Made by a program: the position numbers and the translations under genes
The notes under the pieces: model-generated
What the model was told of the DNA's origin: nothing
Databases searched by the model: none
The model's input: only the letters and a program-made list of their open reading frames with translations
In this document: piece by piece, positions 43,838 through 62,415 of the stretch
Position numbering within the stretch: position 1 is the first letter of the stretch
How the letters are laid out: each line of letters opens with the position of its first letter
DNA from: a virus
DNA: 64,000 bases
Virus record (IMG/VR): IMGVR_UViG_3300028608_000011
Location: 1-64,000 of that record
Reading direction: 5' to 3' (one strand)

Positions 43838-44404
43838 TCAGCCTTCCTTGAGCTGGTCGATCAACCCCATCAGGCTGATGTCGAAGTCGGTCAGCGACCC
43901 GTCGTTGACGATGGTGTGGGTGATGTAGGAGCGAGCAATACCCTTCTCGCTGACATGCCCCTCAAGGCCTACGGCGGTCTTCACCTTCTCCACCAGGCTG
44001 TGGTGCTCCGGCCGGACGATCTCGATGATCACCCCGCCATTGAGCGTGATCCACTCCGCCTCGGAGTCGAATCGCACATCGCTGAGCACCATGCCGTCGA
44101 TAGCCGGTAGGCTGTTGATCTCCTTCCAGCGCCTGGCCACCAGATTCACCCAGATCTGTGGGTTCATCAGCTCCCGGCCCCACTCGGTGCCGAGCGTCTG
44201 CATCATCACCCGGTACGACTTGCAGGTTTCAGGGCAGATGTCCGAGCGATCGCCTTCGTGAAAGTGATCGCCGAAGACCGACTTCAGCATGGTCTTCAGC
44301 GGCTCCGCGAAAGCGTACTGACTGAGCGCCAGGTGTCGGGCCAGATAGCGCGCTGCGTGATCTTTACCCGACCTGGCCAGGCCGGTCACGCCGAGCAGCA
44401 TCAC
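43838..44404 (-). CDS. deoxynucleoside monophosphate kinase
   Basis: GLARSGKD, FAEPLK, R..MQTLGTEWGR, SDVRF..E, H.SE. Confidence 0.9.
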   Translation of the reverse strand: MMLLGVTGLARSGKDHAARYLARHLALSQYAFAEPLKTMLKSVFGDHFHEGDRSDICPETCKSYRVMMQTLGTEWGRELMNPQIWVNLVARRWKEINSLPAIDGMVLSDVRFDSEAEWITLNGGVIIEIVRPEHHSLVEKVKTAVGLEGHVSEKGIARSYITHTIVNDGSLTDFDISLMGLIDQLKEG

Positions 44405-45147
44405 AGCGGCTGCTCAACGCGGAGTTTCAGGGCCTGTGTCAGCTCATCGCTGAACAGCATTTCGCACTTGTCGCTGAGCAGCCACTTGCAATAGTCACGG
44501 CCGAGGTTCTTCACCTTGCTGCCCTTGTGCTGGCCGAAGCCGATCTTCATTTCCAGCGTGCCGTCGTCACCCTGCATCCAGGCCATCAGCTGGTCGAGGT
44601 TCTCGACCTTTGCCCAGCCGAACAGCGGCTTGATGCAGATCAGGGTGCCTTCAACGTCGGCGAAGGCGTCATGCGCCTTGCCCAGCGGTTCGCCCACCAG
44701 GTGCTCGTAGAAGTGAACCAGCTTGGCGCTCGGCCACTTGTGTTCGCTCTTGAGCTTTCGTGCAGCCTTCATCAGGTCGATGGACTTCGGTGCACGAAGG
44801 CCGACCCGCGCTGCAATCCGGTTGTCGAACGAGCCGCTGTTGTAGCCGATCACGGCATCCAGCTTCATCTCGTTGACGGTTTCCATCTGCTCGCGCAGAT
44901 ACTCTTCCCACGGCTTTTCATCGATCAGGTCGTGGGCGTAATAGCCGTGAACTTTCGAGGCTTCCGGGTGGATCTCCTGCCCGGGGTTCAACAAGGTCAC
45001 GTCCTTGTCGTGGATTTCAAACTCACCATTCTGGTGAACGGTCACGATACACAGGGCTGACTGCAGAACGCCGCAGGTTGCGGCATCCACCCCCGTGGTT
45101 TCGTAGTCGTGCGCTAATGCCTTGACGCTCTGTCCATTGAAGCTCAT
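44401..45147 (-). CDS. DEDDh 3'-5' exonuclease (ExoX/DnaQ-like)
   Basis: DYETTG, YN..FD, HDAFADV; C-terminal FGQHKG...Y..WL domain. Confidence 0.85.
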   Translation of the reverse strand: MSFNGQSVKALAHDYETTGVDAATCGVLQSALCIVTVHQNGEFEIHDKDVTLLNPGQEIHPEASKVHGYYAHDLIDEKPWEEYLREQMETVNEMKLDAVIGYNSGSFDNRIAARVGLRAPKSIDLMKAARKLKSEHKWPSAKLVHFYEHLVGEPLGKAHDAFADVEGTLICIKPLFGWAKVENLDQLMAWMQGDDGTLEMKIGFGQHKGSKVKNLGRDYCKWLLSDKCEMLFSDELTQALKLRVEQPL

Positions 45148-45443
45148 TTGGCTTTCCTTTCTGCTGTGAAGAAGTCTTTGTGGATGGCCGGCCATTTACG
45201 GCGGAACGCCTCAATCCGCCTAGCCATGAGTGACTCGTTGTGCTGGGAGTCAGCGAGCTGCTTGCGCAGCTCACGGACTTTTGCAGCGGTTTCCCGCAGG
45301 CGCTGGTTCTCCACCAGCAGTCGGGTGTTGTCGGCGAGCAGCTGATCAACATCAATCGGCTTGGCTGGTGCGGGATCCGGGAGGTTGAGAACAGCCTCCC
45401 GAAATTTTTCCCACCAGCCGCCCTTAGTCGGCGATGTTTTCAA
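45144..45443 (-). CDS. hypothetical coiled-coil protein
   Basis: probable TTG start overlapping the end of the polymerase gene; ATGA overlap downstream. Confidence 0.55.
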   Translation of the reverse strand: MKTSPTKGGWWEKFREAVLNLPDPAPAKPIDVDQLLADNTRLLVENQRLRETAAKVRELRKQLADSQHNESLMARRIEAFRRKWPAIHKDFFTAERKAK

Positions 45444-48400
45444 CCTCCACCTCTTCGTCTTCGTCGGCTTCGATGTAGGTGGCCTTGCGGATCGGATCGA
45501 ACGGTTCCAGCACGTCCTTCTCCCAGATGTCGCGGCCTTCTTCCAGCGCCTCTGCGACAAATTTGGCCACGTTCTCTGGGCTGATGTCACGGCCCAGCTC
45601 CTGCACTCTACCCCAGTCACAGCCGATAGAAAACTCCGGTACTTGTCGAACTTTGTGCCCCGGAGGGGTTGACTCTTCCATGAACCGTCCGACCTCTTGG
45701 CAATACGCCAGAACGTCGTCCTTGTGTACCCACGACACGACTTCATCGTAGATCGGCGCGAAGAACACCATCCGCAGGCGATCCATGATCCCGCTGTCGG
45801 CGATCCGGGTCAGCACGATGCGCAACATCTGCGCGGCGCTGCCCTGGATGGTGGCGTTGGTGCCTTGGCGATGCTGCCGAGCGACCTTGCCGCCGTCGTT
45901 GCTGAAAATGTCCGGCGTAGCGTGACGCTTGGTGCCGAACGCTGTCAGCGTGAAGCCGTTCTTCTCCATGAAGCGGGCTGTCTCTTCCTGCCACGGGCGG
46001 ATCCGCCAGTACAGGGCCATGGTCTGCTCCAGCAGCTGTTTCGCTTCCTCGAATGGTGCGATGAGGTTGCGAGACAGGGTGCCAGCCCCGGCGCCGTAAG
46101 CCATGCCGAAGTTGATCGTCTTGGCCTTGCCGCGAATCGCCACCGCCAGCTTGTGCAGAGGGTGATCCTTGGTGTCCTTGGCCAGGCAGAACTCCATGTA
46201 GTCCATCTTCGCGATACCGGCGCCAGTCATACTGTGCAGGTCTTTCTCGTTGCCTGGTTCATACACCGACAGCATCACCGGGTCGTTGGCGAGGTTAGCC
46301 ATGAGACGGATCTCTTGGCCGTTGAAGTCGATCGCCACACACAAGTAGTCCTTGTTGGGTGGAATGTAGATCGACCGCATGACCTTGCCTTCGCCTTTCT
46401 TCGGCACCTGCAGGCTGTTCGGCGCGCTCGCCGTTGGCCGGGTGGTGTCGGTGCCCGCGTCGGTAACGATCGGGTGAACGTTGCCGTCTCGGTGACGCCA
46501 CATCGGGTACTTGTCGTGGAACAGGCTGCAGCGTGTGCTGGCCGACTTCACCACTCGCAGTACCTGCAGCGCTTCCCGTTGCCAGCAGTCGTTCGGCACA
46601 TCGTTAGCCAGCGCGGTGAGGATCGCTTGCTCATCGGTGGATGGGCCTGCTTCCTTGATGCCGATGGACAGCCGACCTTTGCCTGGCGACTTGCCACGCA
46701 GCCGCACCGGCACGCCAATCTTGCAATACAGCAGTTGCTGCATCTGTGCCGGGCTGCCCACGTTCAGTGGATCGCCGAACTGCACAGTCCGCGGCTCAAC
46801 CCCGGCCAACCGCTGAATCAGCTCAGCCAGCTTGTCAAAAGTCTTTTCCGCGGCTTCCAGCTTGGCACCGTCGGTGTCTTCTGCCGACTCCGACTCTTCT
46901 GCTTTGCGACGTAGGTCACCCATTTTCAGGCAGCCGGCGTTCACCGCCGCGGCGATCATATCGACAACTTCGGCCTGCTCCTTGGTGAGTTTCCACTCAT
47001 CGCGGAAGCCTGCCGCGCCCGCCGCGTCGAACCACTCGGTGATTGCTTTGAGCGTTACCTTCTCGATCTCAGGCAACCCCACCGCCTTGAAGGCCGGATT
47101 CAACTGCAGAGGCGTGAAGGCAAACGTCGGCATCACCGACTCTTCGCGGTACGGCGTGTACTGGCAGGCTGCTTCGACCTTCTTGCGCCACTCTGCGACC
47201 TTGGCCCCGGCCTGATCCACGTCACCATCAGCTTTCTTCTTGGCCGAGCGGAACATGTAGTCCTTCTCGGCTTCGATCAGCGACTTGGCGCCTTCCGTGA
47301 TGTTGCCGGTGACGTTCTTCTCAAGGATCTCGCGAAGCTCGATCATGCCGACGCGGATGGTTTCCAGATCCTTGGTATGGATGCGCTTCTGCAGTGCCCA
47401 GTTCATGTTCGAACCAGCCACGTAGGCACGCTGCAGCACTTCGGTTGGGCGCACTGCCCACTGCTGGTAGAAGTCCCACTGCCCATCCAGTTGCAGCAAC
47501 AGCTGCAGCAGGTCGTGCAGGTGGCCGGTCACCAGGCTGTCATCGGTGCCGTAGGTGAAGGTTTCATCGGCGGTCAGCTCGCACATCATCCGCACGCCTT
47601 GCCCACCGTTACCGGCGGCCAGCGTGTCGGCGAAGGAGGTCTGCTCGTAAGCCAGGTAGTTCAGCGAGATCGCCTTCAGGCCCGCTTCCATGTTTTCGTC
47701 GTAGAACCGCTGCATCATCCGGGTGTCTTGGATGTTTTTCAGCCAGACACCGAGGTTGGTGTGCGAGACCACGCCTTCAAACAAGGCGTTGTGGGCGATC
47801 CGGGTAGTGTGCTCGCCGGCGAATTCCAGAATTTCCAGAATCACCGAGTTGTTCACGTTGGCGCTATCGCGGTGATCCACTGGAATGTAGATCACGTTCT
47901 CCAGATGTCGGCCGAACTGGAACGAGGCACCTGCCAGCTCCTGGCTGAGCATGTCGACGAAGTTGTTGCCCGCCTGAGACGCGCGGCGGAAGTCAGCGAT
48001 CGGGTTCTTGTCCGAGGACTCATAGTCGAACGCGGTCTTGTCGCCTGCTTTGATCTCCTCGAAGATCGCCTCGCGCATCTCGGGCCAGTTGCTGGCGTCG
48101 ACGATCATCGGCACCGGCATCAGGTGGCTGTACTCAGCCTCCCACATATCCTCGCAGCCAACTTCCTTGAGGCAGTTGTACAGCTCGGTGGCGTTCGGCA
48201 CGCGCTTGTGGATCTTCGGCTTGGTCAGCTTGCGCTGGCGAGGTTTCCAGCACAGGTCTGGCTTCAGGTTGGCCAGGCGCCAGCCCATCTTCCAGTCCGC
48301 GAAGTTCTCCTTCAACTTGATCAGGATCTTGTCGCCGGAGGCTTCAATGGTCTCGTCGAGCAGGTCGGTGTTGCCACTTTCGACGATCTCGCACAGCTGC

Positions 48401-49080
48401 TCCAGGCCGTCCACGTCGTACAGCTCCAGCAGCTTCAAGACTTTTGCCGGGCCGAGACCCGTCACGCCTTTATAGTTGTCGGAGTCGTCGCCCATGATTG
48501 ACTTGGCGAAGCTGGTGAAGCGGTATGGCAGGCCCGCCAGCTTGTGCCCTTCGGGGTACACGCCGTCGGCGCCGTAGTGAGCCACGTTCTTCAGGGTGAC
48601 GATGGTGTCACCGTCCACCAGCTGCAGCATGTCTTCGTCGACGGTGTGGATGTCCTTGGCACCCTTCACCATCTGGCAAACCCAGGCAATCAGGTCATCC
48701 GCTTCAACGCCTTCAACGAACATCTGGGTCGCGCCCAGCGCCGAGAAGAAACGCTTGGCCCACGCCATCAGCAGTTTGTACTGCTCGATCTCGATGGGGC
48801 TTTTGTTCTCGTCCTTCTTTTCCTTCTGGCCTTTGTAGGCCGGGTAGAGCCCGAGTCGATAGGCTTTGCCTGCGTCGTGGGCAACCAGCATTTCACGCGG
48901 TGACGCGCCCTGTTCCAGCATTGGGCGGATGTAGCGGGTGAGGAAGTCGGCAGCCGCCGCTTCCCATTCCGCGAACTTGCGATCCAGCTTCACGCAGTGC
49001 AGGGTCTTGTCGCTGACCCCGTAATAAGCGTGTTTAACTGTGGCTCGGAAGTCGATGATTTGTAGAGGGTATTTGTTCAT
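45424..49080 (-). CDS. DNA polymerase family A with 5'-3' exonuclease, 3'-5' exonuclease and polymerase domains
   Basis: EADD, GDDSDNYKGVTGLG (flap endonuclease); FDYE, HNALFE, Y...D (proofreading); DFNGQEIR, RGKAKTINFGMAYG, IQGSAA, YDE. Confidence 0.95.
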   Translation of the reverse strand: MNKYPLQIIDFRATVKHAYYGVSDKTLHCVKLDRKFAEWEAAAADFLTRYIRPMLEQGASPREMLVAHDAGKAYRLGLYPAYKGQKEKKDENKSPIEIEQYKLLMAWAKRFFSALGATQMFVEGVEADDLIAWVCQMVKGAKDIHTVDEDMLQLVDGDTIVTLKNVAHYGADGVYPEGHKLAGLPYRFTSFAKSIMGDDSDNYKGVTGLGPAKVLKLLELYDVDGLEQLCEIVESGNTDLLDETIEASGDKILIKLKENFADWKMGWRLANLKPDLCWKPRQRKLTKPKIHKRVPNATELYNCLKEVGCEDMWEAEYSHLMPVPMIVDASNWPEMREAIFEEIKAGDKTAFDYESSDKNPIADFRRASQAGNNFVDMLSQELAGASFQFGRHLENVIYIPVDHRDSANVNNSVILEILEFAGEHTTRIAHNALFEGVVSHTNLGVWLKNIQDTRMMQRFYDENMEAGLKAISLNYLAYEQTSFADTLAAGNGGQGVRMMCELTADETFTYGTDDSLVTGHLHDLLQLLLQLDGQWDFYQQWAVRPTEVLQRAYVAGSNMNWALQKRIHTKDLETIRVGMIELREILEKNVTGNITEGAKSLIEAEKDYMFRSAKKKADGDVDQAGAKVAEWRKKVEAACQYTPYREESVMPTFAFTPLQLNPAFKAVGLPEIEKVTLKAITEWFDAAGAAGFRDEWKLTKEQAEVVDMIAAAVNAGCLKMGDLRRKAEESESAEDTDGAKLEAAEKTFDKLAELIQRLAGVEPRTVQFGDPLNVGSPAQMQQLLYCKIGVPVRLRGKSPGKGRLSIGIKEAGPSTDEQAILTALANDVPNDCWQREALQVLRVVKSASTRCSLFHDKYPMWRHRDGNVHPIVTDAGTDTTRPTASAPNSLQVPKKGEGKVMRSIYIPPNKDYLCVAIDFNGQEIRLMANLANDPVMLSVYEPGNEKDLHSMTGAGIAKMDYMEFCLAKDTKDHPLHKLAVAIRGKAKTINFGMAYGAGAGTLSRNLIAPFEEAKQLLEQTMALYWRIRPWQEETARFMEKNGFTLTAFGTKRHATPDIFSNDGGKVARQHRQGTNATIQGSAAQMLRIVLTRIADSGIMDRLRMVFFAPIYDEVVSWVHKDDVLAYCQEVGRFMEESTPPGHKVRQVPEFSIGCDWGRVQELGRDISPENVAKFVAEALEEGRDIWEKDVLEPFDPIRKATYIEADEDEEVEVENIAD

Positions 49081-49360: not shown

Positions 49361-49969
49361 TCAAACCTCCGGGAACGCTTTGAAAATAATCTGCAGGCAC
49401 TGCGCCTGATAGCGGGCATCATCCAGCGCATCATGGGCGACACCGCCTTCCCGATCCGGCATGTACAGCCCGCGGGACTCTGCGAACTCCACAAGCGTGC
49501 GCTGGTCACGAACTTTACGAAACGAGTAGGGGACAGCGATACCCTCTCGCTTGTGTGCCTCTTCCAGCCACACGCTGTCACGGTCACCTCGTATCCACAG
49601 CTCACCGGTGAAGTTTGAGTTTCGGCCAATCGGCGTGGTGTCAGCCTGCAGCCATTGCCAGAGGGCGCGAAGGGCGTTGCCGAGGCTGATCCCGCCCTTT
49701 CCTTCCAGCGCAACTTGCTGCGTATTCCGGCTCTGTTCCAGCCACCAGTAGAAAGTGCTTGGGTCTATCGGTGCCTGGCCTTCCAGATTCACCGCGACAT
49801 GGAACTCGTTGCTCACTCCCGCAGGCGGCCCAGCCAGTACCTGATTGGAGGGGTTGGGCGAGAAGCGCACCGCGCCGATCGCAATGATCGGCGCGGCAGG
49901 CCCGAGGCCCGCAGTTTCCAGGTCAATCGACACCGGGTATTCAGCGATGCTCTCGTAGTACATCGTCAC
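49361..49969 (-). CDS. DEDD 3'-5' exonuclease (exoribonuclease-like)
   Basis: IDLET, IIAIGAV, TFYWW..Q, RDQRT, HDALDDA. Confidence 0.85.
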   Translation of the reverse strand: MTMYYESIAEYPVSIDLETAGLGPAAPIIAIGAVRFSPNPSNQVLAGPPAGVSNEFHVAVNLEGQAPIDPSTFYWWLEQSRNTQQVALEGKGGISLGNALRALWQWLQADTTPIGRNSNFTGELWIRGDRDSVWLEEAHKREGIAVPYSFRKVRDQRTLVEFAESRGLYMPDREGGVAHDALDDARYQAQCLQIIFKAFPEV

Positions 49970-50655
49970 TCTCCTGTCAGGGCGTTCCAGCTGTACGGGA
50001 AGAGGCTCTGCATGATCGGGCCGATCTCGCTGAACAGATCGTTCACTTCGCCCTGAGCGTGAGAGTCGGTGCGTTTGGCGTAGGCCGCGGCGTAGGCGTA
50101 AAGGCTGCCAGTCCAGTACCAGTTCACTTCGCAGCCCTGCGGAAGGGCGAAGCGGGCCTGCTCAGGCGCCACGCCCTGCTTCACCAGATCCTCGTAGAAC
50201 TTGATCATGTCCTCGCAGCGTTGTTTGTACGCCAGAAGCAGGGCAGTGCTGTCAGGGTGAGGCCCAGCACTGCCCTGTTTGACCTTGTCACCATCGGGAG
50301 CCAGGCGGAACTCTTTTGGCACAAACAACACCGGGCGATCGCTGATGTAGCGGCGGCTTTCTTCGTTCTCGACGAAGCCGACCTTGTGCTTGAAGCACTG
50401 GGTACGGATCGGCACCGGCGCCGACATTTTCAGGGTGATCGAGGTGTGCGCGAATGGCGTCCAGTGGCCGTGCTTGGCTAGGTAGTTGATCAGCGCCTCG
50501 TGGGAGCGAACTTTCACGCCCTGCTCAACCGACAAAGCTTCTGCTACCGCTTCGGTCAGGAACATCTGCACCGAATCGTCGTTGGCGAAGCTGACCTTGG
50601 CAGCGCGGACAACCGACAGGTCGTTGCCCATGTGGTCGATATATTCTGCTTTCAT
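49966..50655 (-). CDS. thyX: FAD-dependent thymidylate synthase
   Basis: VRAAKVS, HGHWTPF, KHK...NEESRRY, EQARFALP, HAQGE. Confidence 0.93.
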   Translation of the reverse strand: MKAEYIDHMGNDLSVVRAAKVSFANDDSVQMFLTEAVAEALSVEQGVKVRSHEALINYLAKHGHWTPFAHTSITLKMSAPVPIRTQCFKHKVGFVENEESRRYISDRPVLFVPKEFRLAPDGDKVKQGSAGPHPDSTALLLAYKQRCEDMIKFYEDLVKQGVAPEQARFALPQGCEVNWYWTGSLYAYAAAYAKRTDSHAQGEVNDLFSEIGPIMQSLFPYSWNALTGE

Positions 50656-54726: not shown

Positions 54727-54950
54727 CAGTAGATCCTCTGTGACCTGCTTCGAAGGATTTTTTCGTGGTCGTCGCGACAGTCCGAATCACAGAAGCGCTG
54801 AGGCTCCGGGAGCGGCTCGTCGCAGTTGTAGCAGCTGCCTTTATAAGCCAGTGTCGCCACCGGCTTACGGGCCAAGCGCAGCTGCTCCTGCAGAATGTTC
54901 TCCTGCTCAACCCCTGCTCTATCAACCGGGTCTGCGTAATTCTCGGTCAT
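54726..54950 (-). CDS. TraR/DksA-like C4 zinc-finger protein
   Basis: ADPVDRA (DxxDxA) coiled-coil tip followed by CYNC...CDSDC. Confidence 0.75.
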   Translation of the reverse strand: MTENYADPVDRAGVEQENILQEQLRLARKPVATLAYKGSCYNCDEPLPEPQRFCDSDCRDDHEKILRSRSQRIY

Positions 54951-57835
54951 TCCTCAGCCTCCGTGTCCTTGATGAAGTTGTTCAACAGCGTCCCTTTTTC
55001 GGTGAGCTTCTGCACACTGATCACGTAGACGTCGATTTCTGGGTTGTGTGGGTGGGGTTCGATGCGCAGGAAGTAAACTTCGCCCTCGATCAACTCGGCG
55101 AGCTGATTGAAGTTTCGGATTACCGCCAGCTCGCCGACGTTTTTGGTGTGGGCTTGATAACGCGGCAGGCAGGATTGCAGCACCAGGTACAGCGAATCGC
55201 CTTGGCGCCAGTAATGCTTGCCTGCCACCAGACGCAGCCGCTCATCGAACGTAGCGTCAGCCAGGGTGTTCATCGTGCTCAGGACGCGGTCAACTTCCGA
55301 GGAAGACTTGCCGCGCTCGACCTCGGTGACTCGGCCGCCGTAGTAGGTGATCAACTCACTTTCCAGCATGCGGACGCTTTCCACGCCGTCGACCTTGAAC
55401 TCTTCCATGGTGTGGATGAGCATGTGCAGTCCAGTCAGGCAGCACATCATTCCCCAGCGCGGCCGCTCCTCGACGCCCTTGTGGATCATGCTCGACTTGC
55501 TGTGCAGGATCTTCAGCAGCGCGCTCGGCGACGTGCCCAGTGCCACAGTGACCAATGCCCGAGCCATCCTCAGCAGAGCTGACCGGTTCTTCACCGCGAT
55601 GCGGTAATTGTCCCGGTAGGTTTGGTTCTGCAGCGCCTTGGCCTGAAGCCGGACTTCTACCGAACGGCTGCGCAGCGCTGGCACCGATGCCGACTGCTCA
55701 CTGGTGTACACCAGCGGCGCCGATACCCGATCTTCGGTCACAGTCAGCTCGCGCTGGCTGTTGATGTTGCCCCGTTGGATCGGCGCGTGGCTCCAAGCTG
55801 CCTTCAGGATGCCGACGATCTGGCCGTAGCGAGTGTTGCCCAGTTGCACCGGGTTCACCTCTTCGATCAGCCGTGGCACCGTCGTGCTGCTGCTCACATA
55901 GCGGGTCAGCGGGAACAGCGTGCCGACCTCCACGTTCTGCAGCTCAGCCTTGTTGTAGTCGATCCCGTTGATCATCGCCATCAGCGTGGCCAGGCAGGAT
56001 TTGCCCGCCCCGGCGTTGCCGAAGATGTTGAGCAGCGGGAATTGAGGCTCTTCGAACTGGATGTGCTGGCGGAAGTGGCACGAGACAAACCACCCCAGCA
56101 TCTGCGCGACCTGAACCGGTTCGTTCACTTCGCACAGGGCGCGGATGGCCTCGGCCAGCTGCTCATCATCCTCCAGCGGATTGCTGCCGCCGATCAATGC
56201 GGGGGACTGCCGAGCATTGCCGTCGAAGCGGAAAGGGCTGCGCCCACCAAGACCGGTGATGGCTGCCCCAGCTTCAACATAGTGCGCGACCGTGCCCCGC
56301 TCGCTGCGATCTAAAACGATCCCGCAGACGTTCGCACGAATCATCTTGTCCAACTCTTTATCCTCAGCCTTTTCCCTGGAAAATTTCAGCAGGGCCACCA
56401 GCATCTTCTGGATTTCTCCGTCGCCGGCGTACACCGCCGCGTCCCGGCCTTTCACCGCCGAGATCAGGTCACGCTTGGAACTCCACGAACGCTCGGACAA
56501 GGCGATCTCGCTGACCGTCTCGCTGCCCGACACCTTGAGGGTGCCGACCAGTTCCTTGCGCTCACTGTTACGCCAGCTGGTATGGCCACTGGCGTTGGTG
56601 TAGGACTCCAGCTCAAACACTTCCAGCGTGGGCCAGAACGTGAAGTTGGTCAGCTGCCGGCTGTTCTCCTCGCCGACCAGGTGATAGCCGCTCTCGTCAT
56701 AGCGGATCCGCACCTCGGAGTTGTAGTTGCCCACGTTCTCCTGAGTGGTTTCGCCACTGGCAACGTCAGATCGGCAGATCGGGCACTGGCGGCAGGGGGT
56801 GCCGATGGTGGCGATCAGCGCGCCGGGAGCGAACTTGATGGAGCCGTTGAAGGTTCGGTGCAGCTGCCCTTGGACATGCTTGAGTCGCTCGACTTCAGAA
56901 GGCCGGCTGCTCGATTCGACATTCTTCACGAATGGCCGAACCAGCGTCTCCATGTACTCCTTCTCTTCCGACTTCTCGTAGCGGGCAGCGATGTACGCTG
57001 CCAGCTGCATGGCCGCTTGGTTCCAGTTTGAGTTGCCTGAATCACCATCGGTGATCAGCTTCTGGATGCAGCCCGGAATACCTTCCCACTCCCGCATCGC
57101 TTCTTTCGGCACGACACAGGCCGCGCTCATGGCCTTCACTTTGCGGGACGCCGCAACGCGGGCAGCCTTCAGCAACTGCTCGGCTTTCGCGTAAGTGACG
57201 TTCTTGCCTGGCTGTGGAGTTGCCAGCGCCGGCCGAGGGGAAGCCACGATGGCGTGGTACTCCTCGCTGTTCATATCGGCCAGCTCGTTCGGCGTGGTGC
57301 CAACCTTGTAGGTGCCGCTGCCCGGGCGAGGAACACCCTCACAACGCCACATCCGGCCACGGCCGCAGGAGTACACCGATTCATCCAGGCTGCACGGCGA
57401 TTGAAGGCCAGCACCTTTGAGGATGGTCAGCATGATCTCGCGGTAGATCATCGGCAGGAACTTTGTAGGCTTCTTGACGCCAAACACCTGAGCCGGGATG
57501 GTGATGTGCACACCCTTGCCGCCGGACAGCCAGCAGTGGATGAACTCAGACGGGATGTCCAGCTTGTTCATCAGGTAGTCAATCACAGCGTTGACGTCAG
57601 CGAGCACCTGATCAATGTCATCGGCGTCGTCGAAGTCCAGGTACATCGGGCCCATGTACAAAACGGTCTCTACAGCGTTGAGACCGTTTTCAGTAACGTC
57701 TTCCGGGTTTTGATCGACCATCAGGACAGTTTTGAACGCAGGCGGGCCTGGAAGCTCAGCTCTCTCAAGCTGCTCTTCTGTGTAAAGCCGCCATGGTTCC
57801 TTCTTGTCCGGTTTGAACTGAAGGAAATAATACAT
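54947..57835 (-). CDS. primase-helicase (AEP-type primase fused to a P-loop helicase)
   Basis: YLDFD and SGGKGVH primase motifs; CxxCxxC; GNAGAGKS Walker A. Confidence 0.85.
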   Translation of the reverse strand: MYYFLQFKPDKKEPWRLYTEEQLERAELPGPPAFKTVLMVDQNPEDVTENGLNAVETVLYMGPMYLDFDDADDIDQVLADVNAVIDYLMNKLDIPSEFIHCWLSGGKGVHITIPAQVFGVKKPTKFLPMIYREIMLTILKGAGLQSPCSLDESVYSCGRGRMWRCEGVPRPGSGTYKVGTTPNELADMNSEEYHAIVASPRPALATPQPGKNVTYAKAEQLLKAARVAASRKVKAMSAACVVPKEAMREWEGIPGCIQKLITDGDSGNSNWNQAAMQLAAYIAARYEKSEEKEYMETLVRPFVKNVESSSRPSEVERLKHVQGQLHRTFNGSIKFAPGALIATIGTPCRQCPICRSDVASGETTQENVGNYNSEVRIRYDESGYHLVGEENSRQLTNFTFWPTLEVFELESYTNASGHTSWRNSERKELVGTLKVSGSETVSEIALSERSWSSKRDLISAVKGRDAAVYAGDGEIQKMLVALLKFSREKAEDKELDKMIRANVCGIVLDRSERGTVAHYVEAGAAITGLGGRSPFRFDGNARQSPALIGGSNPLEDDEQLAEAIRALCEVNEPVQVAQMLGWFVSCHFRQHIQFEEPQFPLLNIFGNAGAGKSCLATLMAMINGIDYNKAELQNVEVGTLFPLTRYVSSSTTVPRLIEEVNPVQLGNTRYGQIVGILKAAWSHAPIQRGNINSQRELTVTEDRVSAPLVYTSEQSASVPALRSRSVEVRLQAKALQNQTYRDNYRIAVKNRSALLRMARALVTVALGTSPSALLKILHSKSSMIHKGVEERPRWGMMCCLTGLHMLIHTMEEFKVDGVESVRMLESELITYYGGRVTEVERGKSSSEVDRVLSTMNTLADATFDERLRLVAGKHYWRQGDSLYLVLQSCLPRYQAHTKNVGELAVIRNFNQLAELIEGEVYFLRIEPHPHNPEIDVYVISVQKLTEKGTLLNNFIKDTEAEE

Positions 57836-59867: not shown

Positions 59868-60677
59868 TTAGTCAGGGATGCCTGTCAGCAGTAGGGCACT
59901 GGCACGCTGCACCAGCTTTGGATCCGCCAGCTGCTTGACGTTGGGCTTGCGCTCGAGGAACTCAGCCGGCAGGTATTGCACCGCGTCAGGGAACTGGGCT
60001 TCCAGGTGCTTCAGGGTGCGAATCGGTGCGAGGATCTTGGTCAGGTCTTCGTACAGTTCGCCGGCAGCGGTGATCACCGCGAAGTACGCCTGCATCAGCC
60101 GGTCTGCCTGAACGCTAAGGGAATAGGCTTCAACGGAGTAGGGCAGGCGGTACTGATCGTCCTTCTTCACCTCGACTTCTGGGTGAAATATTTTGCCCAG
60201 GCCCGGGATGCTGGGGAGATCCGCGTGGCTGCACTTCCAGCTGTAGTGGAAGTCGTAGCTACCGGTGTACTTGTTTGTGAAGTTGAGGAAGCTGCTCCAC
60301 TCCTGCTCCACGGCTTCACGCACCAGCTGCCATTTCTGCATATCTTTTTCGCGTATTTTGCAGACTCCCCGGCCTTCGTAACTGAGGCCGACCTTGCCCA
60401 CCGCCGTGCTCTCGGTGGTGTTGAACTTGTCGTTCGGCTTGACCGTTATGACGTCGATGTTGCCCTTCAGGCTGCTGAAGATGCCGTCCTGAATCAACGG
60501 GGCCCAGCGGCTCTGTGGCACCTCGGGGATCTTCAGCGAGATCTGCTTGGCGAACAGCTGGCGCCAGAGTTTGTCCAGCGCTCGAGCGGCCTTGGTGGTG
60601 CTGGCTGCCTGGCGCTTGGAGGCTTGACGCAGCAATGACACGATCAGGTCGCGTTTGACTTCGTTGGTGATGTTCAT
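59868..60677 (-). CDS. Nmad5-like protein (nucleotide-modification-associated domain 5)
   Basis: MNITNEVKRDL N-terminus and RTLKHLEAQFPDAVQYLP C-terminal motif. Confidence 0.6.
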   Translation of the reverse strand: MNITNEVKRDLIVSLLRQASKRQAASTTKAARALDKLWRQLFAKQISLKIPEVPQSRWAPLIQDGIFSSLKGNIDVITVKPNDKFNTTESTAVGKVGLSYEGRGVCKIREKDMQKWQLVREAVEQEWSSFLNFTNKYTGSYDFHYSWKCSHADLPSIPGLGKIFHPEVEVKKDDQYRLPYSVEAYSLSVQADRLMQAYFAVITAAGELYEDLTKILAPIRTLKHLEAQFPDAVQYLPAEFLERKPNVKQLADPKLVQRASALLLTGIPD

Positions 60678-61039
60678 GCTTTACCGCCGTAAATGTTGTT
60701 GAAGTGTTTGAGGATGAGCGGGTACAGCGCTCCGGGTTCTTCGATCTCCAGATCCTTGCGAATCTGTTCGCACTCGGCCTCTGTCCAGATGGCCATGAGT
60801 GCGGCCTCGCTCGGCACCTCCCACATGGCGCCGGGCGTGTAGAGCATCGTGAAGTTCAACGTCTTCCCTACGTTGCTGCGCTGTCGCTTGCAGACCTTGC
60901 TGTAGGGTAGGCCGAGGATCACAGCCGCCGTGATGGTGTGGATGTCCAGCAGCTTTGACGATTTGTACAGCTCCCCGGAGCTGGCCAGCCGCCGCTCGAT
61001 AGCGGCGTAATCGACTTCGTGTTGGATCGGCTTGATCAT
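60674..61039 (-). CDS. stand-alone family A polymerase fragment (motif A plus fingers/O-helix), 121 aa
   Basis: DYAAIERRL, DIHTITAAVILG, R....KTLNFTMLY; no motif C; ATGA-coupled to both neighbours. Confidence 0.75.
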   Translation of the reverse strand: MIKPIQHEVDYAAIERRLASSGELYKSSKLLDIHTITAAVILGLPYSKVCKRQRSNVGKTLNFTMLYTPGAMWEVPSEAALMAIWTEAECEQIRKDLEIEEPGALYPLILKHFNNIYGGKA

Positions 61040-61467
61040 TTATGGGCCTCGGGGTCTTTGATGTGCTTGTCGAACAATTTCTTGTGACGACGAGCAAAGC
61101 GGGCGGTGTGGGCGATGGCATACAACAGGGCCAGCGACAGCACGATAGGGTAAAAATTTACGGTGACGCAGATAGCCATCGGAATAGCCCCGACAACTAC
61201 ACACGATCGCGCAAGCAGGTCGGCGCCGCGAATATCCTCCTTGCCTTCCTTCTGGAATCGCTCGTAGGAGTCGCTGTACTCGTAGCCGCACAGCGTGCCG
61301 ATCAACGTCATCATCGGCCATGGGCCTTCAGGCTTGCGGTCATCTACCCATAACAGCGCGGTTTTCACCGCCTCTGTGGCTGCCGAGAGGGTGAAGAACA
61401 GCGCGGCCATTGCCACGCCCATCAGGATCATGGCGAGGAACATTCTTTCCGGTGGTAGATCAGTCAC
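61036..61467 (-). CDS. hypothetical membrane protein
   Basis: SD AAGGAG then GTG; three hydrophobic segments, basic C-terminus. Confidence 0.7.
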   Translation of the reverse strand: MTDLPPERMFLAMILMGVAMAALFFTLSAATEAVKTALLWVDDRKPEGPWPMMTLIGTLCGYEYSDSYERFQKEGKEDIRGADLLARSCVVVGAIPMAICVTVNFYPIVLSLALLYAIAHTARFARRHKKLFDKHIKDPEAHK

Positions 61468-61886
61468 TTTAGGTACTCCTTTCTGATTCGCCGAAGCGAG
61501 GTTGCATGGCTCAAGCCCTTCCAGGCGTAGAGCCTGGCCGAGCCGTCTGCCAAGAAGTGGATCTGCTCCGTCCAGCTGTAGGTGTAGGCACCTGACAGGC
61601 TCAGCGACTGGTCGGCACGTTTGGCCAGCGCCAGACGAGTTTCTTCGCCGGTGCCGGCCGCAAACAGTTCGAATATTCCGCGCTGCGCCGCGGGGGTCAG
61701 CATCACGGAGCAAAAGCGCGGGTCTTTGGCAAATTCAAGCAGCTGGTCGTAGGGGATGAACTTCTCCTTTTCCCAGCGCTTTATGAATTTTTCCAATGCC
61801 TTGCGTGAACTTCTTGTAGCTGTTTCAAGCAGCGACTGGCCCGGACGTGCCGGCCAGGTAGGCTGCAATATCGTGTTGACGTCCAC
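61464..61886 (-). CDS. hypothetical protein
   Basis: SD GAGGAG before GTG; start uncertain. Confidence 0.55.
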   Translation of the reverse strand: MDVNTILQPTWPARPGQSLLETATRSSRKALEKFIKRWEKEKFIPYDQLLEFAKDPRFCSVMLTPAAQRGIFELFAAGTGEETRLALAKRADQSLSLSGAYTYSWTEQIHFLADGSARLYAWKGLSHATSLRRIRKEYLK

Positions 61887-62415
61887 GCTCTTGCTCCTCG
61901 GTGCGGTTCGGTACGAAGACCCAGGCCTGCACAAAGCAGCCCTGTTCGATCGGCATGACTTCAGGGTTGGCGTCCAGCACCACGATGTCGGAAGCCGCTT
62001 TGGCAATTTCCTTGGCCCGCTCCCTCGCATCCGCCATCTTCAGCCGGTTGCGCATCACTTCAGCGTTGACCTTGAGCAGTTTGCTGAGAGGGTATTGCTG
62101 GCCGATGACCAGCAGCAGTTCAAGATCTTGCTCGCTCAAGCCCTCCATCGGCTTGGTGCCCTTCTCGAAGAAGCGGATCAGCTCGGCCCGCCAGTATTTA
62201 GGCGACAGCTGCATGCACTTCATCAGCACCAGACACTGCTCCACTGACAGCTCGCCGTGCTTCGTCAACGGGACGACTCGAAAACCGGCGTCCTTGTCGG
62301 TGTTTACGCGCAGCTCTGCGTAGAGCTGCGCCTCTTCCTCGGAGCTGAACTTGCCGCCCGGAGACCAGTAGCCTTTACGGCGCCACTGGATTTGATGGGT
62401 GAAAGCACAGCTCAT
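61825..62415 (-). CDS. hypothetical protein (196 aa)
   Basis: ATGA overlap; phage codon usage. Confidence 0.7.
   Translation of the reverse strand: MSCAFTHQIQWRRKGYWSPGGKFSSEEEAQLYAELRVNTDKDAGFRVVPLTKHGELSVEQCLVLMKCMQLSPKYWRAELIRFFEKGTKPMEGLSEQDLELLLVIGQQYPLSKLLKVNAEVMRNRLKMADARERAKEIAKAASDIVVLDANPEVMPIEQGCFVQAWVFVPNRTEEQERGRQHDIAAYLAGTSGPVAA

Follow-up and report, generated by a model that had tools for sequence, protein, structure and literature searches.

An open reading frame (ORF) of 121 amino acids (aa) was recognized on the minus strand of IMG/VR virus record IMGVR_UViG_3300028608_000011, at 60674-61039 of the 64,000-nucleotide stretch that was analysed (positions 1 to 64,000 of the record; hereafter the window). 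The virus is a soil phage of Pseudomonas type. The product of the ORF, termed mini-PolA, is judged from sequence and profile comparisons to descend from a family A DNA polymerase of cellular type, of which it represents the fingers subdomain, standing alone as a small protein. The gene is part of a block of replication genes on the minus strand, in which the order of transcription is a conserved protein without assigned function, a small membrane protein, mini-PolA, an Nmad5-like gene, a 117-aa protein, a Dda-like helicase, a small ORF, and a 962-aa protein. The stretch is listed for soil metagenome DNA sets, and no RNA set is listed.

The mini-PolA frame starts with ATG, has zero internal stops in the ORF list, and carries GAGG 7 nt 5' of the start codon. 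On the plus strand, TCAT was read at 60674-60677 and at 61036-61039, i.e., ATGA overlaps at both junctions of the gene. The first joins the stop of mini-PolA to the start of the Nmad5-like gene, and the second joins the stop of the upstream membrane-protein gene to the start of mini-PolA. The 4-nt overlap with the Nmad5-like gene, in which mini-PolA ends 3 nt past the Nmad5-like start, is common to the window and all six related loci. The ORF, its ATGA coupling to both neighbours and the motifs quoted in a preliminary description of this DNA were all present in the sequence. The scan for promoters and terminators gave nothing informative.

Residues 9-70 of mini-PolA aligned with positions 157-222 of the 381-position Pfam domain DNA_pol_A (PF00476) at an E-value of 2e-5. 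The score of 24.1 bits was under the gathering cut-off of 34.3 bits, and it was 21.8 bits in the whole-genome search. When a profile of 27 homologues was compared with Protein Data Bank (PDB) sequences, the top match was the E. coli Klenow fragment (chain residues 377-444, i.e., Pol I 701-768; E 1.2e-7), followed by the Bst, Taq, and apicoplast polymerases. By hhalign, a 48-member family profile was aligned to full-length Pol I over 67 columns, with a probability of 98% and an E-value of 1.7e-13. The likeness to DNA_pol_A put forward in the preliminary description was recovered at the profile level, both by Pfam and by hhalign. In BLASTP, mini-PolA showed 49% identity over 68 aa to a full-length cellular-type Pol I (E 5e-13), against 26% identity over 61 aa, with a 13-residue gap, to the polymerase that the phage itself encodes (resident PolA). 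The earlier impression that the segment resembles bacterial Pol I more than it does the phage's polymerase was borne out by these values. Because the identity to the fingers of resident PolA is 26%, mini-PolA is not a recent copy of the resident gene.

The AlphaFold (AF2) model of mini-PolA was all-helical, with a mean predicted local distance difference test (pLDDT) score of 81.4 and scores above 90 for approximately residues 31-60 and 81-90. Residues 26-68 of the model superposed on residues 728-767 of E. coli Pol I at 1.4 Å over 40 residues, with 42% identity. By these comparisons, mini-PolA is taken to comprise the motif A aspartate, helix L, and the segment up to and including helices N and O, with a three-helix part peculiar to its lineage at the C-terminus.

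The motif A remnant and the start of helix L were placed by the Klenow alignment at residues 10-17 (60989-61012, minus strand). Motif A reads D10-Y-A-A-I-E15, in which D10 corresponds to Pol I D705 and E15 to the steric gate E710, and R17 corresponds to R712. Neither D10 nor E15 varies within the Lana-type group, and in distant members of the family their frequencies are 0.89 and 0.84. The helix N segment, D-I-H-T-I-T-A-A, was assigned to residues 32-39 (60923-60946, minus strand) by alignment and model superposition. Its D32 is the counterpart of D732 in Pol I, and its H34 that of H734. All 48 family members share D32 and A39, whereas the conservation of H34 is 90% or more.

The O-helix, i.e., motif B, was recognized at residues 53-67 (60839-60883, minus strand) in the 48-member alignment and in the column comparison with polymerases. 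It reads R54...K59-x3-F63-x3-Y67, and Q53 and N62 are also present. R54, K59, F63, and Y67 correspond to Pol I R754, K758, F762, and Y766, and R54, K59, and Y67 are invariant in 48/48 members. The Lana-type subgroup, including the window, has one added residue between R54 and K59, giving Q-R-x-x-V-G-K (residues 53-58 at 60865-60882 on the minus strand of the window), whereas polymerases and the distant family members keep the canonical Q-R-x-x-x-K spacing.

The remaining part, residues 73-117 (60689-60823, minus strand), was found to be family-specific by profile searches, alignment, and the AF2 model. It consists of a W-E-V-P-x-E-x2-L-M-x-I-W-T motif and three helices (residues 78-84, 87-96, and 105-117). 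W73, P76, L81, I84, W85, and E89 are invariant in the alignment of 27 homologues. In profile searches, this part was unmatched by full-length polymerases.

No motif C, which in polymerases holds the second catalytic aspartate (the equivalent of D882) in the palm, was found in mini-PolA; the alignment with the profile stops at position 222 of 381, and the chain terminates at residue 121. The protein begins 9 residues ahead of the motif A aspartate, so that the thumb and the N-terminal palm are missing. Without palm motif C and a thumb, mini-PolA cannot polymerise. The preliminary description had proposed a non-catalytic fingers module, and the extent of the protein, from motif A to just past motif B, agrees with it. 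Compared with the Pol I fingers (approximately residues 701-797 in Klenow, with Bst and Taq as further examples, and approximately 157-222 in PF00476), mini-PolA is homologous from the motif A aspartate through helices L, N, and O. It keeps the same contact residues for deoxynucleoside triphosphate (dNTP), and its N/O hairpin superposes closely, as given above. Unlike Pol I, it is a free protein with no palm motif C, thumb, or exonuclease domain, has one extra residue in the O-helix, and continues past motif B into the three-helix segment that polymerase profiles do not match.

A complete family A polymerase of the phage, resident PolA, was identified by Pfam and translation at 45424-49080 on the minus strand. 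It carries 5'-3' exonuclease, 3'-5' exonuclease, and polymerase domains with motifs A, B, and C, and its DNA_pol_A match covers positions 11-380 of 381 (E 2.2e-50). It is a three-domain, Pol I-like protein of approximately 1218 aa with a long insertion ahead of the polymerase core and an acidic C-terminus, and its motif C reads Y-D-E instead of the usual H-D-E. The idea that mini-PolA complements a defective O-helix of resident PolA in trans was dropped, as the R, K, F, and Y of the O-helix are all present in the resident enzyme.

Homologues of mini-PolA were collected from a large protein collection. Twenty-seven clusters at 43-82% identity were found, all of 119-129 aa and with 28 invariant columns. 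Many of them are on contigs of 85-89 kb, with phages Lana, in which the protein is gp58, and PMBT3 among them. An exhaustive profile search added approximately 25 clusters at the 50% identity level, of 88-155 aa, which match the whole profile (positions 1-118), whereas polymerases match the family profile at positions of approximately 6-75 only. In total, the family comprises approximately 45 clusters diverged to 25-30% identity, with length and motifs conserved, and most of its distant members are also from contigs of 80-90 kb. Some distant members lack the motif A aspartate or the whole N-terminal segment. The family was defined as free-standing proteins of approximately 90-155 aa that match the full profile, including the W...P.E..L..I[WYF]T..E segment, and mini-PolA falls within this definition.

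In a tree of 63 shared columns, 46 short proteins, including mini-PolA, formed one clade apart from 104 full-length polymerases. The support of this clade was just 0.65 because the alignment is short, and no polymerase lineage came out in this tree as sister to the short proteins. Scans of IMG/VR with three distant subfamily alignments gave one locus, referred to as L013, and nothing else. In the one metagenome scan, the matches were mostly to ordinary bacterial PolA genes, and the only long one (L033) proved to be a Pol I of full length. When the distant members were searched by tblastn against isolated phages, only Lana, PMBT3, and full-length polymerases were hit, and the match in Ralstonia phage C22 was a 672-aa gene. 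PHROGs and the ESM Atlas contain automatic clusters of small viral proteins named DNA polymerase family A. In the full-text literature, no paper describing stand-alone polymerase fingers proteins was found.

The gene is intact in the window and at six related loci, which represent five distinct phage genomes. No stops or frameshifts were found in the seven DNA copies, at synonymous divergence (dS) of 0.5-1.4. The median ratios of nonsynonymous to synonymous divergence (dN/dS) by the Nei-Gojobori method were 0.49 for mini-PolA, 0.35 for its residues 30-90, 0.52 for the Nmad5-like gene, and 0.24 for the Dda-like helicase; these ratios are rough and probably overestimates, given dS of 0.5-1.4 compressed by codon bias. 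The preliminary description had judged the gene to be maintained rather than decaying, and had named conserved length and dN/dS below 1 as checks. Both were obtained, i.e., 119-129 aa with invariant motif residues in the 27 homologues and a median ratio of 0.49, together with intact copies at the six related loci. The comparisons show mini-PolA to be, in all probability, an old gene of single origin that is maintained by purifying selection in a phage group with genomes of 80-90 kb.

These data bear on two other origins considered for mini-PolA, i.e., as what is left of a second polymerase gene, without function, or as one half of a split polymerase. In many phages PolA is split just before motif A, and weak matches of mini-PolA to the PHROGs of C-terminal polymerase halves, i.e., phrog_2573, phrog_6982, and phrog_10285, are in line with such an origin. 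These halves, and the small "DNA polymerase" phrog_30466, are phage ORFs that start near motif A or the D-I-H segment. Family members matched the four groups at E-values of 1e-7 to 3e-3 only, and the window protein matched phrog_30466 at 0.1 only. The split halves are proteins of 270-340 aa with motif C that pair with an N-terminal half into an active enzyme, whereas mini-PolA ends after the fingers. The whole record of 84,007 bp (CheckV completeness 96%) was searched with PF00476 at E-values up to 10, and the two matches were resident PolA and mini-PolA, with no other fragment. The preliminary description had considered that the missing C-terminal half might be located elsewhere in the genome, and it was not found. 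Because the 84-kb genome has no other polymerase fragment, mini-PolA is not half of a split polymerase. The Nmad5-like neighbour, whose profile has an hhalign probability of 0.1% against Pol I, does not supply a second half either. A complete polymerase is already encoded in the genome, and the relic origin is also opposed by length and motifs kept over approximately 45 clusters at 25-30% identity, and by the seven DNA copies free of stops and frameshifts at the dS given above. This explanation, relic or split half, is largely refuted already and is considered highly improbable.

The mini-PolA family was compared column by column with 104 full-length polymerases. D705, E710, R712, D732, H734, R754, K758, N761, F762, and Y766 (Pol I numbering), which are invariant or nearly invariant in polymerases, are kept in the family. 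R754, K758, and Y766 have a frequency of 1.00 in both close and distant members. Q708, L711, and the alanine seven columns past E710 are relaxed in the family, although they are conserved in polymerases. Y46, A39, and the block W73...W85, E89 (mini-PolA numbering) are newly fixed. By the established biochemistry and structures of Klenow and Taq, D705, E710, H734, R754, K758, F762, and Y766 are essentially the residues of the fingers and motif A that touch the incoming dNTP-Mg.

Because the kept side chains are almost exactly the dNTP-Mg contacts, we infer a module that binds nucleotides or triphosphates. Binding of dNTP by mini-PolA would fit the conservation of residues. The explanation that we prefer, tentatively and at somewhat less than an even chance, is that mini-PolA may be a nucleotide- or triphosphate-binding accessory module. 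Its role would be that of a sensor or buffer of nucleotides or triphosphates, not that of an enzyme, and its synthesis, within the replication-gene block, would be translationally coupled to that of the neighbouring genes.

Several points weigh against this explanation. The fold match of the whole AF2 model was weak, i.e., VIA-align Z scores of at most 3.1 and Foldseek E-values of at least 0.35 against the PDB. Polymerases dominate the list of matches, and the weakness arises because the three C-terminal helices are family-specific. In polymerases, the i/i+4 spacing of the arginine and the lysine brings both side chains onto the triphosphate, and the residue added between R54 and K59 disrupts this spacing. 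Nor do all family members have a complete dNTP-Mg half-site, since some distant ones lost the motif A aspartate or the whole N-terminal segment. The kept residues could serve the folding of the N/O hairpin instead of ligand contact, and no more than weak binding of dNTP would be expected of a fingers domain on its own.

It was also considered that the fingers fold has been reused as a protein-binding surface or a decoy, directed to a replisome component or to a defence sensor that recognises polymerases, with no binding of nucleotides. The strongest family-specific block, W73...W85 and E89, is without an equivalent in polymerases and might form an interface, and mini-PolA is an accessory gene among small genes without assigned function, as many counter-defence genes are. 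However, no partner or defence system was indicated by any result, and such a role leaves unexplained why the dNTP-contact residues are selectively kept while other conserved columns drift. With 26% identity to the fingers of the phage's own polymerase, mini-PolA would be a poor mimic of that enzyme. A role as a DNA mimic was rejected because mini-PolA has a net charge of 0 and an isoelectric point (pI) of 6.8. The pI range of the family, 5.2-9.9, likewise argues against a DNA mimic or a general binder of nucleic acids. A protein-binding or decoy role is therefore regarded as unlikely. The decoy for immunity and the competitor of host Pol I put forward in the preliminary description gained nothing here; no result bears on either, and no special likeness to Pseudomonas-type Pol I was seen.

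Within the preferred explanation, a nucleotide-binding module, a narrower version was considered in which the freed fingers domain would be a stand-alone sensor of dNTP or alarm-nucleotide levels that relays to a partner. We regard this as quite unlikely in this specific form. The partner would be a fused DNA-binding domain in one subclade, and elsewhere perhaps replication or anti-defence functions. The subclade is that of L013, comprising two further proteins (P0063 and P0064) and the L013 gene (5617-6330 of a 91,595-bp IMG/VR contig), in which an N-terminal domain of approximately 118 aa and mini-PolA form a single in-frame fusion of 237 aa. This domain showed a weak match to HTH_38 (E 0.005) and a weak likeness to DtxR-type repressors. 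On this fusion, mini-PolA could be the ligand-sensing half of a regulator that controls a DNA-binding partner, a special case of the nucleotide-binding explanation. However, the helix-turn-helix assignment was not significant (E 0.52 in the PDB search), and the window has no homologue of the N-terminal domain. In L013, moreover, a strong Shine-Dalgarno sequence, GAGGAG, and an ATG are kept just ahead of the mini-PolA part, so a separate product is possible. The L013 fusion locus may give two products, with mini-PolA perhaps still made separately. For mini-PolA, a regulator of this type is very doubtful.

The polymerase fingers are normally studied within the whole enzyme. Here, a natural family keeps this subdomain alone across deep divergence, and, with its nucleotide-contact residues, it presents a fingers subdomain able to fold and to be useful by itself. 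If nucleotides are bound by it, mini-PolA would represent a minimal dNTP-binding module of natural origin, usable as a scaffold for biosensors and for studying the first, open-state step of nucleotide selection. Such binding would further suggest a means, so far unrecognised, by which phages monitor or buffer nucleotide pools. If the sensor explanation is true, the family would be a new class of small ligand-sensing modules derived from polymerases.

The gene downstream of mini-PolA encodes a 269-aa protein (59868-60677, minus strand) that matches phrog_15487 (E 7e-53) and is termed Nmad5-like from the Pfam scores of its homologues. Three homologues (P0043, P0056, and P0058) reached 27.1-28 bits for Nmad5 (PF18757), for which the cut-off is 27, whereas the window copy had no Pfam match at E-values up to 10. 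Searches with its model fold gave generic helical-bundle matches only (Z at most 5.4). Nmad5 is found in thymidine-hypermodification cassettes adjoining the polymerase gene in M6-like phages (PMC9476957), and a point mutation in Nmad5 lets a Dhillonvirus escape the Tmn defence (PMC11846954). Neither paper mentions a polymerase fragment.

The arrangement of the two genes allows another explanation, in which mini-PolA and the Nmad5-like protein would form a unit of two proteins, with mini-PolA as its nucleotide-binding subunit; the pair would be made in a fixed ratio by the ATGA overlap and would act on nucleotides or DNA. It is favoured by the overlap being kept in the window and 6/6 related loci, and by the position of Nmad5 next to a polymerase gene in the hypermodification cassettes. 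The distribution of the genes does not follow it. In the complete 91,595-bp genome behind L013, mini-PolA is encoded and no Nmad5-like gene was detected anywhere at E-values up to 1. UAntarctica, also a complete genome, encodes the Nmad5-like protein, and the mini-PolA profile matches it nowhere except within the full-length polymerase. Distant Nmad5-like genes without mini-PolA occur in KPP25 and phCDa. From genomes with one gene or the other, mini-PolA is an accessory gene that is separable from the Nmad5-like gene.

The gene content of the block is a further point against a joint role. ThyX (E 2.4e-38; 49966-50655), a deoxynucleoside monophosphate (dNMP) kinase (43838-44404), and an RNase T-like exonuclease (44401-45195) were found in the same minus-strand block. 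This set points to ordinary synthesis of dTMP and not to hydroxymethyl-deoxyuridine chemistry. In M6-like phages Nmad5 is beside hypermodification genes, whereas the window copy is in a replication block, and no thymidine-hypermodification genes were seen among the window proteins scanned. A two-protein unit is thus considered decidedly unlikely. The coupling to an Nmad5-like gene in the preliminary description holds as far as the identity of the neighbour is concerned, through its homologues, whereas the functional tie is weak because the genes are separable.

The 269-aa protein is labelled "DNA polymerase" or "DNA polymerase A" in phrog_15487, RefSeq Lana gp57, PMBT3 AUM59662, and KPP25 gp61. 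However, hhalign of the Nmad5-like profile with Pol I gave a probability of 0.1%, i.e., no polymerase similarity. The label looks like a propagated misannotation. The annotation of this neighbour, called a DNA polymerase in RefSeq and PHROGs with no detectable polymerase similarity, can thereby be corrected.

Upstream of mini-PolA, a small membrane protein of approximately 135 aa was predicted from translations and hydrophobic segments at 61036-61443 on the minus strand; its start is uncertain. It is translationally coupled to mini-PolA, and a PMBT3 protein has an almost identical C-terminal tail. Lana has no membrane-protein gene, and its mini-PolA is directly after the preceding conserved gene. 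MazG is located nearby in Lana and PMBT3.

A protein with a ...S-L-S-L... segment was found ahead of the mini-PolA or Nmad5-like position, with mini-PolA present or not, i.e., at 61464-62030 (minus strand) in the window, as uan_103 in UAntarctica, and at 5189-5620 in L013. At the other end of the block, the 962-aa protein (54947-57835, minus strand) is conserved in Lana, PMBT3, UAntarctica, and L013, and had no Pfam match at E-values up to 0.001. In PMBT3 it is labelled "RNA polymerase-binding transcription factor". Its position adjacent to the helicases suggests a primase-like replication protein.

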